From: an uncultured bacterium
GTDB lineage: Bacteria > Krumholzibacteriota > Krumholzibacteriia > LZORAL124-64-63
DNA: 64,000 bases
Direction: 5' to 3'
NCBI GenBank assembly: GCA_963727525.1
Contig: CAVSGO010000005.1
Span: forward strand, 512,001 to 576,000
Shown here: in pieces, positions 7,643 through 12,009 of the stretch
How the letters are laid out: the number at the start of each line of letters is the position of its first letter
Position numbering within the stretch: the stretch's first letter is position 1
Program-made: the position numbers and the translations under genes
The notes under the pieces: model-generated
Database searches by the model: none
Seen by the model: only the letters and a program-made list of their open reading frames with translations
Told to the model about the DNA's origin: nothing

Positions 7643-8688
7643 GCGCGGGCGGGACGCGCTCTCCCACGCCCGAAGCCGGTGGGATGATCGCCGTCACCGG
7701 CGCCACCGGGTTCCTCGGCAGCCATATCTGCGACATCCTGATGCAGCGCGGCTATCGCATCCGCGCGGCCGCGCGCGCCACGAGCGACCTGCGCTGGCTG
7801 CGCGGCAAGCCGATCGAGGTGGCGACGGTGGACCTCGCGGACAGCGCCCGCGTGCGCGCGTTCGTGACAGCCTGCGATGCCGTCGTGCACTGCGCCGGCC
7901 GCGTGTCCGGGTCCGGCGAGGACGACTACCAGCAAGCCAACGTCGTGCCCACGCGGACTCTGCTGGAAGCGGCGTCGCTCGAACGCGCGCCGGGCTGCTT
8001 CGTCTACGTCTCGTCGCTGGCCGCGCACGGTCCGGCGGGGCCGCAGGCGCCGGCGACCGAGGACGGTCCGCTGCAGCCCGTCTCGGCCTACGGCCGGAGC
8101 AAGCGCGACGCCGAATCCCTCGTGCACGGGCGCCCCTGGCCGTTTCGCGTGGTGACGCTGCGGCCGCCGTCCCTCTACGGCCCGCGCGACCGTGAATTCC
8201 TGCCGCTCTTCAAGGCCGCCAGCCGCGGCTGGACGGCGACCCTGGGCAACTTGCAGGCCATCTCCCTCGTGGACGGACGCGACGCGGCGAGCGCTGCCGT
8301 GTCGCTGATGGAGACACCGGATACGCACGGCGCCTACTTCGTCGACGACGGCGTCGACGAGGACGGCAAGGAGGCGGCACGCCGGCGCCTGGCCTGGGGC
8401 TACACCTGGGACGAGATCCACTACGCCCTGGCCGTGGTCTGGCGACGACGCGTGCGCGAGCTGACTCTGCCCATGCCGCTGCTGCGCGCTGCGGCGGTCG
8501 TGATGCCCTCGCGCTGGCGTCGGTCGGCCGCCCTGCTGAGCGACGACCGGCTGCGGGATCTCGGCGCCCAGGGCTGGGTGTGCAGTGCGGCCCGGCTGCG
8601 CCGCGAGACCGCCTGGCGCCCCCGCCACGACCTGGTCGCTGGATTCCAGGACACGCGCGATTTCTTCGAGCGCAACGGATGGTTGTGA
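7639..8688 (+). CDS. NAD-dependent epimerase/dehydratase-family SDR, likely ceramide reductase (CerR-like)
   Basis: VTGATGFLG Rossmann motif, VSSLAA, YGRSK (YxxxK), RPPSLYGPRDRE; ATGA overlap with the upstream gene (alternative start 7684). Confidence 0.75.
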   Translation: MSAGGTRSPTPEAGGMIAVTGATGFLGSHICDILMQRGYRIRAAARATSDLRWLRGKPIEVATVDLADSARVRAFVTACDAVVHCAGRVSGSGEDDYQQANVVPTRTLLEAASLERAPGCFVYVSSLAAHGPAGPQAPATEDGPLQPVSAYGRSKRDAESLVHGRPWPFRVVTLRPPSLYGPRDREFLPLFKAASRGWTATLGNLQAISLVDGRDAASAAVSLMETPDTHGAYFVDDGVDEDGKEAARRRLAWGYTWDEIHYALAVVWRRRVRELTLPMPLLRAAAVVMPSRWRRSAALLSDDRLRDLGAQGWVCSAARLRRETAWRPRHDLVAGFQDTRDFFERNGWL

Positions 8689-9617
8689 TGCGCGGAGCCC
8701 TGGCGGCGCAGCAGCCCTGGCGGCGCGCGGTCGACCGCTGGGCCGTGGTCTACGTCCTGGTGACGGGGCTGCTACCGCTCCTGGATCCGGCGGTGTTCAG
8801 CGAGGTCCCCACCGGCCCCCCTCTGGGCCTCGGCCCGCACATCGCCCTGCATCTCGGGCTCGCCGCCTTGCTCTGGGTGCTCCCTCCCTGGCTGCGCAGT
8901 CGCGAGTCGTTCGCGCCGCGCTTGCTGGCCGAGATCACCGTACCGCTGCTCTTTCCGCTCTTCTATAGCGAGCTGGCCTACCTCGGCCAGATCTACTTCA
9001 ACGTGAACGCGAGCTTCGACCCCTGGCTCATCGACATCGAACAATCGATCTTCGGGGGCCAGCCCAGCCTGCTCTGGTCCGAGCGCATGCCGTGGCCCTG
9101 GCTGCACGAGTACTTCGAGTTCGCGTACTTCAGCTACTACCTCTTCGCCGCCGGCGCGCTCTTCATGATCTGGCGCCTGGGCGACGCCACGCGCGACGAA
9201 CGCTGGCGGCACACGACCGGCATGGTGCGCGACCTCGTGGCCGTCATGCTCACGTGCTATGCGTGGTACATCGTGTTGCCGGTGTGGGGGCCGAAGTACT
9301 TCGCGAAGATCGGCGTTGCCGGCCCGGTGGAGGTAGGCGGCGGCATCTTCACGAGGATCATGCACTATATCCACGCCCACGGCGCCCTGCACGGCGCGGC
9401 GTTCCCCAGCTCGCACGTGGCGGGCTCGATGGTACCTTGGTGGTGGACGTGGCGGCTCTTCCCACGGCAGCGCTGGTGGACAACCGCCCTCTGGCTCTCG
9501 CTCTGCGCGTCCATCATCTACTGCCGCTATCACTATGGCGTGGATCTGATCGGTGGGGTGCTCTGGGGGGCCCTCGTCATCGGAGCGTCGCGGCGTTTTC
9601 GGGACTTTTCCAGTTGA
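8688..9617 (+). CDS. Membrane PAP2-superfamily phosphotransferase/phosphatase (Aur1/IPC-synthase-like)
   Basis: Multiple hydrophobic segments; AAFPSSHVA and YCRYHYGVDL (His/His/Asp triad); TGATG coupling to the upstream gene. Confidence 0.8.
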   Translation: MRGALAAQQPWRRAVDRWAVVYVLVTGLLPLLDPAVFSEVPTGPPLGLGPHIALHLGLAALLWVLPPWLRSRESFAPRLLAEITVPLLFPLFYSELAYLGQIYFNVNASFDPWLIDIEQSIFGGQPSLLWSERMPWPWLHEYFEFAYFSYYLFAAGALFMIWRLGDATRDERWRHTTGMVRDLVAVMLTCYAWYIVLPVWGPKYFAKIGVAGPVEVGGGIFTRIMHYIHAHGALHGAAFPSSHVAGSMVPWWWTWRLFPRQRWWTTALWLSLCASIIYCRYHYGVDLIGGVLWGALVIGASRRFRDFSS

Positions 9618-9641
9618 ATTTGTCTATCGATTAGCTACAAT
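9614..9641 (+). promoter_or_regulatory. Candidate sigma70-type promoter for a small RNA
   Basis: TTGAAT-N16-TACAAT in an AT-rich patch, with no plausible plus-strand gene downstream. Confidence 0.5.
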
Positions 9642-9647
9642 GGTGCC

Positions 9648-9696
9648 GGTGCCCGGCTGGGTTTCTCCCTCCAATCCCCCGACTTGGTCGGGCACC
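9648..9696 (+). ncRNA. Candidate small RNA hairpin with C/U-rich (anti-SD-like) loop
   Basis: 14-bp stem GGTGCCCGGCTGGG/CTTGGTCGGGCACC with 4 G-U pairs that form only on the + strand; loop TTTCTCCCTCCAATCCCCCGA; starts 6 nt after the -10 box. Confidence 0.45.
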
Positions 9697-9710
9697 ACCC
9701 GACAGTTCTC

Positions 9711-9751
9711 GCGCGTCAGGCGGCCCTCCGGGCCGCCTTCGTGCTACGCGC
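9711..9751 (-). promoter_or_regulatory. Candidate SECIS hairpin of the zinc-ribbon gene
   Basis: After TGA: G-GCGCGT-AGCACGA-AGGCGGCCC-GGA-GGGCCGCCT-G-ACGCGC; loop 23 nt from UGA, no U-tract. Confidence 0.6.
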
Positions 9752-9941
9752 CTCAGCTGAAGCCGCTACCGCAAGACGGCCCACCTTCGCCGCCGCCGGT
9801 GGCGAAGGTCGACAGGGCGCGCTCCACGTCGTGCGACGCGCACTGCGGGCACTGGGCCTCGCCGGCCTCCATCTCCGCGAATGTGAGGATGTCCTCGAAC
9901 GACGTGCCGCACGCGCGGCAGCTGAATTCGAAGATCGGCAT
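9744..9941 (-). CDS. FmdB-family zinc-ribbon protein, probable C-terminal selenoprotein (..CGSGFS-U-GA)
   Basis: MPIFEFSCRACG...CPQCAS (two CxxC), AGGAGG RBS; TGA at 9753-9755 followed by GGC GCG TAG and a SECIS-like hairpin. Without recoding the CDS ends at 9753. Confidence 0.75.
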
Positions 9942-9973
9942 GAATCCTGTCCTCCTGCTGTCGAACTCCCGGA

Positions 9974-10123
9974 TCACTGTCCGGACTTGGTTTCTTTCGG
10001 TTTCTTGTGCGGGTCTCCGACCTCGCAGACGTCCGCCGCTCAGCCCGGGCGGAAACCGAGCCGCGGCAGGATCACGTTGACCACCACGAGGTAGGCCACG
10101 ATGAAGATGATCAGCTTGATCAC
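9974..10123 (-). CDS. Small single-TM protein with in-frame TGA, probable selenoprotein (not in ORF track)
   Basis: GAGGAG RBS + GTG; MIKLIIFIVAYLVVVNVILPRLGFRPG-[TGA 10040-10042]-AADVCEVGDPHKKPKETKSGQ-stop; GC-ending codons throughout the first 27 codons. Confidence 0.65.
10008..10027 (-). promoter_or_regulatory. Candidate SECIS hairpin of the small membrane protein
   Basis: TGCG-A-GGTC-GGA-GACC-CGCA; loop 21 nt from UGA; same C(GGA)G loop as the other candidate. Confidence 0.6.
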
Positions 10124-10154
10124 GGTCCGGCTCCTCTTCGATCGTCCATCTACA

Positions 10155-10180
10155 GTCAACTATCTGCAAATCTAGTTAAC
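10155..10180. promoter_or_regulatory. Imperfect palindrome, candidate repressor operator
   Basis: GTCAACTA-N10-TAGTTAAC (1 mismatch) just downstream of the minus-strand -10 box. Confidence 0.4.
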
Positions 10181-10184
10181 CCTT

Positions 10185-10212
10185 AATTTATCGGTTTTAG
10201 CCGCCCTGTCAA
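10185..10212 (-). promoter_or_regulatory. Sigma70-type promoter of the two small genes
   Basis: Minus strand TTGACA-N16-TAAATT, divergent from metG. Confidence 0.6.
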
Positions 10213-10305
10213 GCTCCCCGGGGCCCCTCTTGCCGCGGCCTTCGCCATGGTGTTTACTTCCAGCCCGATCCAAGAACGCCGATCACCTCGACGCCGGGAG
10301 ACCCC

Positions 10306-12009
10306 GTGAGCCCGTTCCAGCGCACCCTCGTGACCGCCGCCCTGCCCTACGCGAACGGTGACATTCATCTCGGCCACATCGCGGGCGCCTACCTGCCGCC
10401 CGATATCTATGTGCGCTACCTGCGCTTGCGCGGACGACCGGTGCTTTTCATCTGCGGCACCGACGAGTACGGCGTGCCCATCACCCTGGCCGCCGAGAAG
10501 CTCGGCATCACGCCCAAGGCGCTGGTGGACCGCAACTACGTGACGATCCGCGATTCCTTCGCCGGCCTGGGCATCGCTTTCGACAACTTCTCCCAGACCA
10601 GCCGCGCGATCCACACCGAGACCAGCCAGGCGTTCTTCCTCGATCTGCACGGTCAGGGCGTGCTGAAGCAAAAGTCGACCCAGCAGTTCTTCAGCCCCAG
10701 CCAGAAGCGCTTCCTGGCCGACCGCTACATCGAGGGCACCTGCCCACGCTGCCACAAGCCGGGCGCCCGCGGCGACCAGTGCGAGTCGTGCGGTTCGTCG
10801 CTCGATCCCACCGACCTTATCGATCCGCGCGACGTCCTGCACGGCGAACCCCTGGAACTGCGAGAGACCACGCACTGGTTCCTGCCCCTGGGCGACTGGC
10901 AAGAACAACTCGAGGCGTTCATCACCAGTCATCCCGAGTGGAAGGACAACGTCCAGCAGTACTGCCGCTCCTGGCTGACCGAGGGTCTCGAGGACCGCGC
11001 CGTCACGCGCGACATCTCCTGGGGCGTGCCCGTGCCCCTGCCCGACCACGAGGGCAAGGTGCTCTACGTGTGGTTCGACGCGCCCATCGGCTACATCTCC
11101 TCCACGCGCGAATGGGCCATCGCGCAGGGCGACCCCGAAGCGTGGCGGCTGTGGTGGCAGGATCCGGCCACGCGCCTGGTGCACTTCATCGGCAAGGACA
11201 ACATCGTCTTCCACACCCTCATGTTCCCGGCCATGCTCATGGCCCACAGCGAGCCCTGGGTGCTACCCGACAACGTGCCCGCGAACGAGTTCCTCAACCT
11301 CGAGGGCCGCAAGCTGTCCACCAGCCGCGGCTTCGCGGTGTGGCTGCCGGATTACCTCGCGAAGTTCCAGCCGGATCCTCTGCGTTACACCTTGGCGCGC
11401 AACCTGCCCGAGACCCGCGACATGAACTTCACGTGGGAGGGCTTCCTCGCCCGCAACGACAACGAGCTGGGAAACAACTTCGGCAACCTGATCAACCGCG
11501 TCCTCACGTTCATCCACAAGTACTTCGACGGGAACGTGCCCGCGTGGGACCCGTCGCGGCATCAGGACATGGACACGCGCGCCCTCGCCGAGGTGACGGC
11601 GCAGCGCGAGCGATGGGCCGAGCACCTCGAAAAGTTCGAGGTGAAGGCCGCCATGGAGTGCGCCTTCGCCGCCGGTCAGTTGGGCAACCGCTACTTCGAC
11701 GAATCGGCCCCCTTCACCAGCCGCAAGACCGACCTCGCCCGCTGCGCCCACAGCCTGGGCGTGGCTGTGCAGATCCTTCGCCAGCTCGCCGTGATGCTGG
11801 CCCCTGTGTGTCCATTCGCCATGGAAAAGCTCTGGGGCTGGCTGGGCATGAGTACGCCGCTCTTCGACGGCGCCTATGACGAGGGCCTGCAAGACATCCC
11901 GGCGGGCCGCCCTCTCGGCAAGCCGGAGATCCTCTTCCCCCGCCTCGACCCCGCCCTCGTGCAGGCCGAGATCGACCGGCTAAACGCGCTGGTGGCGGAG
12001 CAGGAGTAG
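10306..12009 (+). CDS. metG: Methionyl-tRNA synthetase (no C-terminal tRNA-binding domain)
   Basis: TAALPYANG.IHLGH, GTDEYG, RGDQCE.CG, YVWFDAPIGY, FIGKDN, KLSTSRG. Confidence 0.97.
   Translation: MSPFQRTLVTAALPYANGDIHLGHIAGAYLPPDIYVRYLRLRGRPVLFICGTDEYGVPITLAAEKLGITPKALVDRNYVTIRDSFAGLGIAFDNFSQTSRAIHTETSQAFFLDLHGQGVLKQKSTQQFFSPSQKRFLADRYIEGTCPRCHKPGARGDQCESCGSSLDPTDLIDPRDVLHGEPLELRETTHWFLPLGDWQEQLEAFITSHPEWKDNVQQYCRSWLTEGLEDRAVTRDISWGVPVPLPDHEGKVLYVWFDAPIGYISSTREWAIAQGDPEAWRLWWQDPATRLVHFIGKDNIVFHTLMFPAMLMAHSEPWVLPDNVPANEFLNLEGRKLSTSRGFAVWLPDYLAKFQPDPLRYTLARNLPETRDMNFTWEGFLARNDNELGNNFGNLINRVLTFIHKYFDGNVPAWDPSRHQDMDTRALAEVTAQRERWAEHLEKFEVKAAMECAFAAGQLGNRYFDESAPFTSRKTDLARCAHSLGVAVQILRQLAVMLAPVCPFAMEKLWGWLGMSTPLFDGAYDEGLQDIPAGRPLGKPEILFPRLDPALVQAEIDRLNALVAEQE

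Follow-up and report, generated by a model that had tools for sequence, protein, structure and literature searches.

Candidate selenoproteins in a two-gene operon of Candidatus Krumholzibacteriia: a small membrane peptide and an FmdB-family zinc ribbon

Can two very small genes, each interrupted by a TGA codon, together form a selenoprotein operon? The question is raised by a 64,000-nt stretch of DNA from an uncultured bacterium of the class Candidatus Krumholzibacteriia (GenBank assembly GCA_963727525.1, contig CAVSGO010000005.1, positions 512,001 to 576,000 of the forward strand; hereafter the window, numbered from its first letter), in which two small minus-strand genes lie behind one promoter-like site. 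The initial annotation of this locus had described a promoter (TTGACA-16-TAAATT), two genes each led by a ribosome-binding site, an in-frame TGA close to a Cys in both (U-x4-C in gene 1 and C-x5-U in gene 2, U being selenocysteine, Sec), a short open continuation to a second stop, and GGA-loop hairpins 21 and 23 nt past the respective TGA codons. Every element of that description is found in the sequence, the second hairpin just beyond the segment that had been delimited. Gene 1 consists of 27 codons, a TGA at 10042-10040 (residue 28), 21 further open codons and a TGA stop at 9976-9974; gene 2 consists of 62 codons, the candidate Sec TGA at 9755-9753 (residue 63), codons for Gly-Ala and a TAG stop at 9746-9744. 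The recurrence of the TGA, of the open frame beyond it and of the hairpin in more than 140 related genomes exceeds chance, and we consider it likely that both are selenoprotein genes of one operon, each product carrying a single Sec.

If so, Sec would be inserted at the UGA of both genes by the ordinary bacterial route, which relies on SelB and a selenocysteine insertion sequence (SECIS). A genome lacking the Sec machinery had been named in the initial annotation as fatal to its proposal, and all four components are in fact present. The source genome (4.66 Mb in 8 contigs, 96.67% complete, 66.8% G+C) contains tRNA-Sec (selC, 70.4 bits, called by ARAGORN as SeC with anticodon tca) together with SelA (388.8 bits), SelB (302.2 bits) and SelD (365.2 bits). 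Its selD gene, which lies outside the window (C8:225636-226547), has an in-frame TGA of its own, within S-A-G-U-A-A-K, and a downstream hairpin (C-C-A-G-G / GGA / C-C-U-G-G) with 20 nt between UGA and loop, which we used as an internal SECIS reference.

Gene 1: conservation across the TGA codon

A DNA search of 40 relatives yielded 12 orthologous gene 1 loci from 12 genera; the relatives of the class are all metagenome-assembled genomes. The TGA occupies the identical column in all 12 and is followed five residues on by an invariant Cys. Past the TGA the sequence is conserved, and at every locus no stop interrupts the frame for at least 15 codons. The orthologues share the motif L-P-R-L-G-x-x-P-G/T-U-x4-C-S-I/V-G-D-R, in which P, R, G, P, U, C, G and D do not vary across the 12 loci. 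An AlphaFold2 model of the window protein has a confident helix over residues 2-21 and coil afterwards, and the full-length product would consist of an N-terminal membrane helix, a P-R-L-G-x-x-P-G/T-U-x4-C loop and a short charged tail.

The same arrangement recurs on a wider scale. A gene 1 profile matches 87 of the 91 genomes in the source genome's family, including 55 of the 55 high-quality ones, and all 89 of these matches have an in-frame TGA. Across the class it matches 147 of 208 genomes, and gene 1 is present in 95 of the 125 high-quality class genomes searched. By family, the counts of genomes are 86/90 in f1, 40/43 in f3, 5/8 in f7, 7/13 in f9, 1/1 in f8, 4/10 in f6, 3/12 in f5, 0/7 in f2 and 0/23 in f4. 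When 185,579 species genomes were scanned with a DNA pattern accepting TGA, TGC or TGT as the critical codon, 59 loci came up; four of them (three in Micromonospora and one in Myxococcales) were chance matches and were dropped, and the remaining 55, the true members, all have TGA. The initial annotation had held that homologues with TAA or TAG at the TGA positions of the two genes, and nothing conserved downstream, would refute its proposal. The homologues have TGA at both, never TAA or TAG, and what follows the codon is conserved.

When the profile was compared with 1.84 billion protein representatives there were 204 matches at E <= 0.001, of which the best 150 were examined. The alignment of Cys with the TGA that had been anticipated is seen in 89 of these 150, which are continuous proteins some 45-100 residues long that have the motif L-P-x-x-G-V/I-P-T-C-M-S-G-x-C. 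Another 37 terminate exactly at the U column, bearing out the suspicion that gene callers miss or truncate such genes, and five have other residues there. These Cys forms belong to other lineages, and in an alignment of 12 Sec and 27 Cys forms only P20, G23, U/C28 and C33 are invariant. Neither form matches a Pfam or NCBIfam model, and a sequence search of the PDB with gene 1 gave no match. The Cys form falls into an unnamed protein-atlas cluster with a score of 0.85, to be taken as a lead only; this cluster is commonest in Planctomycetota.

Two further observations concern the protein matches themselves. The U column holds W in 17 and G in 2 of the best 150 (P0123 and P0132 among them), probably reflecting TGA codons called under genetic codes 4 or 25; if these residues are TGA codons, the Sec form would extend to further lineages. 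In one metagenomic protein of 208 residues (P0179) the Cys form is fused C-terminally to a thioredoxin domain (TIGR01068, 105.7 bits), an arrangement that is either genuine or due to wrongly joined gene calls.

The RNA that follows the gene 1 TGA carries a second layer of conservation. A 7-bp stem, C-U-C-G-A-U-C / G-A-U-C-G-G-G, closes a GGN loop within the codons C-S-I-G-D-R, and the distance from UGA to loop is 21 nt. The hairpin resembles that of the genome's own selD, with the same GGA loop and a spacing of 21 as against 20 nt. A bacterial SECIS is a stem-loop a short way 3' of the UGA with a G in the apical loop, and the bSECISearch model places the loop 16-37 nt from the UGA. Among 57 distinct sequences the stem positions are paired in 96.7% of 399 cells, compared with 24-57% in slid controls, and 13 cells have changed on both sides, a number reached in none of 500 shuffles. 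The changes include a compensatory exchange of AU for GC that links the first position of the Ile/Val codon to the silent third position of the Asp codon, the two varying together: the combinations are ATC-GAT in 44 cases, GTC-GAC in 13, ATC-GAC in 4 and GTC-GAT in none.

We also applied a strict SECIS-like criterion (a stem of 6 bp or more with no fewer than 4 G-C pairs, a G among the first two bases of the loop, and a loop starting at position 17-30 when the T of TGA is 0). It is passed by 54 of 61 Sec forms, as against 6 of 63 Cys forms when the sequence after their Cys codon is used and 67 of 1170 ordinary TGA-ended long open reading frames (ORFs) of the same genome (5.7%). The S-I-G-D-R stretch is unconserved in the Cys forms, as expected if it is the RNA rather than the protein that constrains it. 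By every computational criterion gene 1 is almost certainly a selenoprotein gene, and the hairpin 21 nt downstream, lying in the codons C-S/E-I/V-G-D-R/P, would direct its recoding. The Sec/Cys alignment points to the functional residues of a small membrane protein with a wide distribution, and the Sec form, a single-pass peptide of roughly 50 residues, would be among the smallest membrane selenoproteins.

Gene 2: a TGA close to the end of an FmdB-family protein

Gene 2 belongs to the FmdB family, scoring 57.6 bits with TIGR02605 (cut-off 31.3) and 47.9 bits with PF09723 (cut-off 34.4). All 11 orthologues compared match FmdB, and C8, C11, C31 and C34 are invariant among them. In a structural model, residues 1-46 form a folded core and residues 47-62 a disordered Gly-rich tail. 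There is a weak resemblance to HypA, and a sequence search of the PDB with gene 2 returned generic zinc ribbons only. Read through its TGA, the product would be a four-Cys FmdB zinc ribbon whose flexible, Gly-rich arm has the terminal sequence C-G-x-G-(G)-F-S/T-U-G/A(-x). A reading of the FmdB tail as the precursor of a ribosomally synthesized and post-translationally modified peptide was set aside, since no gene for a modifying enzyme adjoins it in the window. In a related genome, the tail of a paralogue is rich in both Cys and Gly, which compares with a Cys form of gene 2 by analogy only.

The behavior of the stop codons was followed in 56 complete gene 2 orthologues taken from 61 distinct gene 1 loci. 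Two loci that run off their contigs (L046 and L050) and one with only 118 nt downstream (L074) were excluded from the count. Two others were also left out, each with an intact gene 1: L029 (genome G002), in which no stop occurs for hundreds of codons, and L083, which has an aberrant 130-codon frame. In both, the loss of the gene 2 frame is likely due to frameshifts or assembly errors.

Each of the 56 complete orthologues has TGA as its first stop, with G-F-S/T/G (or G-P-T) just ahead of it, and a second in-frame stop follows after one sense codon in 32 cases, two in 21 and three in 3. The codon just past the TGA specifies Gly (by four different codons) or Ala (by three) in 55 of the 56. In 11 of 11 divergent orthologues from families f3, f4, f5, f6, f7 and f9 the tails are unalignable and the TGA layout is kept (GPT-U-GGC, GGG-U-GF, KPT-U-GI, GGG-U-APL, GFT-U-SP and others), bringing the total to 67 of 67. 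As a background we took 1977 crude long ORFs of the source genome, which end in TGA, TAG and TAA in 59%, 35% and 5% of cases, respectively. The second stops of gene 2 follow this usage (29 TGA, 24 TAG and 3 TAA), whereas the first stops deviate from it. An in-frame stop within four codons past the TGA is found in only 80 of 1170 background ORFs (6.8%).

Databases carry the gene in its shorter form. The best 120 of 889 gene 2 homologues end in GFT, GFS, GFG, AFT or GFA, at the residue before the TGA, as the predicted truncation by gene callers would have it, and such homologues are annotated as 'zinc ribbon domain-containing protein' or 'FmdB family'.

A hairpin is also found downstream of the gene 2 TGA, with 23 nt from UGA to loop and, in the window, no T-run after it. 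The strict criterion is passed at 37 of 56 loci, as against the 5.7% background. With its candidate Sec so close to the C-terminus, a recoding hairpin of gene 2 would have to lie past the stop codon. Engineered expression of thioredoxin reductase in E. coli reportedly showed that a bacterial SECIS also works when it is placed in the untranslated stretch directly after a stop codon, and gene 2 is a candidate for a naturally occurring example, with the SECIS in its 3' untranslated region. Taken together, the invariant TGA and the short conserved extension give gene 2 a good claim to be a selenoprotein gene, and we regard this as quite probable. The reading would also provide the FmdB tail with a testable chemical role.

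The operon, its possible function and alternative readings

The two genes are closely linked. At 60 of the 61 distinct loci an FmdB gene starts 70-165 nt past the gene 1 TGA, and at the last one the downstream sequence is limited to 118 nt. Over the families, gene 2 (scored at E <= 1e-7) is distributed much as gene 1 is (85/90 genomes in f1, 39/43 in f3, 7/8 in f7, 9/13 in f9, 1/1 in f8, 4/10 in f6, 7/12 in f5, 1/7 in f2 and 3/23 in f4) and is present in 105 of the 125 high-quality class genomes searched. Both genes occur together in 142 of the 208 genomes, gene 1 alone in 5 (three of these being weak matches with E > 0.001), gene 2 alone in 15 and neither in 46. A search for gene 2 gave no match in five high-quality f2/f4 genomes and a match in five of five control genomes.

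Some individual genomes depart from the usual picture. At L222 (genome G176, family f4), counted as having gene 2 only, a divergent helix peptide with a TGA lies upstream of gene 2 and was missed by the gene 1 profile; it reads ...G-I-V-G-T-U-G-V-N-R-G-P-V-G-P-D-R... and is without the Cys five residues past U. Two genomes, G071 (contigs C156 and C184) and G103 (contigs C6 and C7), have two copies of the gene pair on separate contigs, which could represent duplication, a mixture of strains in the bin or contamination.

The layout of the operon in the window is given in Table 1. The promoter-like site is a match to a sigma-70-like consensus and is not evidence of function; the region has two such sites, as against a mean of 0.2 in shuffled sequences. 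The second (9614-9641, plus strand; TTGAAT-16-TACAAT, 9/12) is at the 3' end of the flanking PAP2 gene and points antisense into the operon. A look-up of sequencing runs for the locus listed none of RNA and a single one of DNA, with a share of 0.11. The flanking genes are metG (10306-12009), which is divergent, and a convergent gene for a PAP2-family membrane protein (8580-9617). A search of positions 9000-11000 with Rfam in E-value mode gave four weak chance matches only, none of them to a SECIS family.

Table 1. Features of the two-gene operon, with positions in the window
Feature	Position	Strand	Details
Promoter-like site	10185..10212	-	TTGACA (10212-10207), 16 nt, TAAATT (10190-10185); 10/12 positions match
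Shine-Dalgarno GAGGAG, gene 1	10131..10136	-	7 nt ahead of the gene 1 start (GTG, 10123)
Gene 1, 49-residue membrane-anchored selenoprotein candidate	9974..10123	-	GTG start at 10123 (from translation)
SECIS-like hairpin, gene 1	10009..10026	-	GGA loop 10018-10016; within codons C-E-V-G-D-P
Shine-Dalgarno AGGAGG, gene 2	9951..9956	-	9 nt ahead of the gene 2 start (ATG, 9941)
Gene 2, 65-residue FmdB-family zinc-ribbon selenoprotein candidate	9744..9941	-	ATG start at 9941 (from translation)
GC-rich 9-bp hairpin 3' of gene 2	9718..9738	-	GGA loop 9729-9727; candidate SECIS, possibly operon terminator

What the two products might do together is suggested largely by their neighbors. Around the Cys forms of gene 1 (65 distinct loci), a zf-HC2 anti-sigma factor is encoded upstream on the same strand at 32 loci. 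Downstream, 25-29 loci encode a rhodanese joined to a membrane domain of YgaP type, 18 a cytochrome bd-I-like protein that includes a cytochrome c domain, and 9 DsbD_TM plus thioredoxin. The anti-sigma, rhodanese-YgaP and DsbD-thioredoxin neighbors make the function of the gene 1 family testable. In three genomes of family f9 (loci L212, L224 and L225, in G200, G201 and G196, respectively) an ArsR/SmtB regulator (NF033788, 72-78 bits) separates gene 1 from gene 2, and it bears a sub-threshold resemblance to BigR (47.6-51.5 bits).

The small redox/metal module suggested in the initial annotation is consistent with these gene neighborhoods. As a tentative proposal, we suggest a membrane-proximal thiol/selenol relay, whether of selenenylsulfide, sulfane-sulfur or redox type, which we favor because of the neighbors of the Cys forms, the ArsR/SmtB linkage, the position of the C/U-x4-C loop beside a helix and the flexible Cys...Sec arm. 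The juxtamembrane U-x4-C loop would cycle between the selenol/thiol and selenenylsulfide states, and the mobile Cys...Sec arm of the zinc-ribbon protein would exchange with it. A more elaborate version, which we consider rather doubtful, is a dedicated membrane-tethered selenol relay in which the loop would swap a selenenylsulfide, a persulfide or a Se atom with the arm, thiol-stress or ArsR-type regulators would control the operon, and the gene 2 hairpin would serve as SECIS and terminator at once.

The main functional rival keeps Sec in both proteins and makes them a pair for binding and handing off soft metals or metalloids (Hg, Cu, Cd, As), with Sec and Cys as ligands. The ArsR/SmtB metalloregulator between the genes in the three f9 genomes would suit such a role, as would the zinc-binding fold of gene 2 with its weak resemblance to HypA, and the Sec of UXX-star and Sao proteins may be a metal ligand according to the available part of PMC13188914. 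However, the neighbors of the Cys forms are thiol- and sulfur-redox proteins and include no metal pumps, and the ArsR-type regulator also scores, below the cut-off, on the model of sulfite-sensing BigR and is hence indecisive. In the window, too, no transporter gene adjoins the operon, its neighbors being metG and the PAP2-family gene. We regard metal hand-off as unlikely.

Several considerations weigh against our reading of the locus as a selenoprotein operon or against parts of it. The Sec machinery is consistent with the reading and is non-discriminating within the class, because SelA is present in 200 of 208 class genomes (125 of 125 high-quality ones). The related genomes are not independent of each other, and their kinship inflates the counts given above and overstates their significance. 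Read-through and selenium incorporation at either TGA are deduced from sequence. A pattern search found an FmdB gene after the Cys form of gene 1 at 0 of 80 metagenome loci, many of which have short flanks, and the pairing of the two genes is therefore lineage-specific. For gene 2 in particular, no Cys form was found among the best 120 of 889 homologues, and at 19 of 56 loci the hairpin does not pass the strict criterion. At about 15 of 56 loci a T-run follows the hairpin, and about 10 loci have a strong hairpin near 38 nt from the TGA with a weak one or none before it. The gene 2 hairpin may be a terminator, a SECIS or both.

These features of gene 2 are what would be expected if only gene 1 contained Sec: gene 2 would then end at its TGA as a protein of 62 residues with a G-F-S C-terminus, its hairpin would be an intrinsic terminator, and its second stop would be a back-up. 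That TGA is the commonest stop of the genome fits this too. What such an account leaves unexplained is why the first stop is TGA without exception, yet the second stop drifts at background usage, and why a second stop should follow within 1-3 codons in all orthologues when few ordinary ORFs have one so near. Nor does it account for a codon past the TGA that remains Gly or Ala while its third base varies, or for a U-x(1-3)-stop layout that survives across tails which cannot otherwise be aligned, such as GPT-U-GGC, GGG-U-GF and KPT-U-GI. We judge this alternative improbable. Strongly disfavored, and very improbable indeed, is the reading in which neither TGA is recoded and gene 1 encodes a leader or membrane micro-peptide of 27 residues whose hairpin is a regulatory RNA (an attenuator) for gene 2: the hairpin does sit between a short ORF and the next gene, matches no Rfam family, and the evidence for translation is indirect, yet 89 of the best 150 representatives run on through the TGA column with a Cys and keep the second Cys, the frame is open for at least 15 codons in all 12 orthologues, and the hairpin is like the SECIS of the genome's selD and is essentially missing from the Cys forms.

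Relation to known selenoproteins and selenoprotein operons

We return to the reading in which both genes encode Sec and compare it with systems already described. An FmdB-family selenoprotein was predicted in 2008 (Zhang and Gladyshev) using the Global Ocean Sampling metagenome (GOS), with Sec in a CxxC knuckle (available part of PMC2398784), and an FmdB selenoprotein is listed as TIGR02605 with the motif UxxU in Table 1 of PMC13188914, as far as that text is available. The GOS protein and gene 2 are alike in having a TIGR02605/PF09723 domain, in being small and in having a Sec encoded by UGA; in the GOS protein, according to the same available portions, Sec replaces a zinc-knuckle Cys (CxxU or UxxU), and reviews give the motif as U/CxxU or UxxU. 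Gene 2 is unlike that form, since all four of its knuckle positions are Cys (in 11 of 11 orthologues) and its predicted Sec is 1-3 residues from the C-terminus. If the present reading is correct, gene 2 represents a new Sec position in a zinc-ribbon family that is very common yet has no assigned function.

A Sec near the C-terminus, and with it a recoding hairpin that has to lie past the stop codon, is shared with the UXX-star/KCU-star families (NF041114, NF041211 and NF033934), as these are described in the available part of PMC13188914. Their fold differs from that of gene 2, and the two were set apart by searches with NCBIfam models: the UXX-star/KCU-star models match neither window protein at E <= 1, and none of them appears among the 25 of 42 matched families listed for the 11 gene 2 orthologues. 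A further similarity is to the dual CXXC motif small (seleno)protein NF041197, which, like gene 2, is small and combines two CxxC motifs with Sec; its model matches neither window protein at E <= 1 and touches 2 of the 11 orthologues with a best E of 0.043, and gene 2 is not a member.

Mammalian thioredoxin reductase has a flexible C-terminal arm with the sequence Gly-Cys-Sec-Gly. By analogy, the tail of gene 2 would likewise be a flexible C-terminal arm that carries a Cys and a near-terminal Sec. The two are otherwise unlike: in gene 2 the Cys and Sec are at least five residues apart, the arm would extend from a 46-residue zinc ribbon rather than a flavoenzyme, and there is no homology between them.

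In the available text of a 2026 review covering 119 selenoprotein families (PMC13188914), Table 1 includes neither a single-helix U-x4-C peptide nor an FmdB protein with a C-terminal Sec. Neither form was found in the accessible parts of the literature on UXX-star, zinc-ribbon and Krumholzibacteri selenoproteins or of deep-Sep and BSepDB, a search that covered main texts; an earlier listing in their supplements is possible. The operon very probably encodes two previously unannotated selenoprotein forms that would be decoded by the ordinary bacterial mechanism. Were this so, present annotation would be hiding both of them, one, gene 1, without any family name. The frequency of gene 1 and gene 2 means that the pair belongs in any account of how Krumholzibacteriia use selenium.

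Finally, operons with more than one selenoprotein gene have been described, and the available part of PMC13188914 gives grdA-grdB and the Sao and Tso operons as examples. The ArsR/SmtB regulator found between the two genes in family f9 weakly resembles TsoR (38.8-44.8 bits, below the cut-off of 115). As far as these systems are covered there, the window operon resembles them in grouping several selenoprotein genes into one operon; it is unlike them in that its proteins are unrelated to theirs and that it is made up of only two very small genes.

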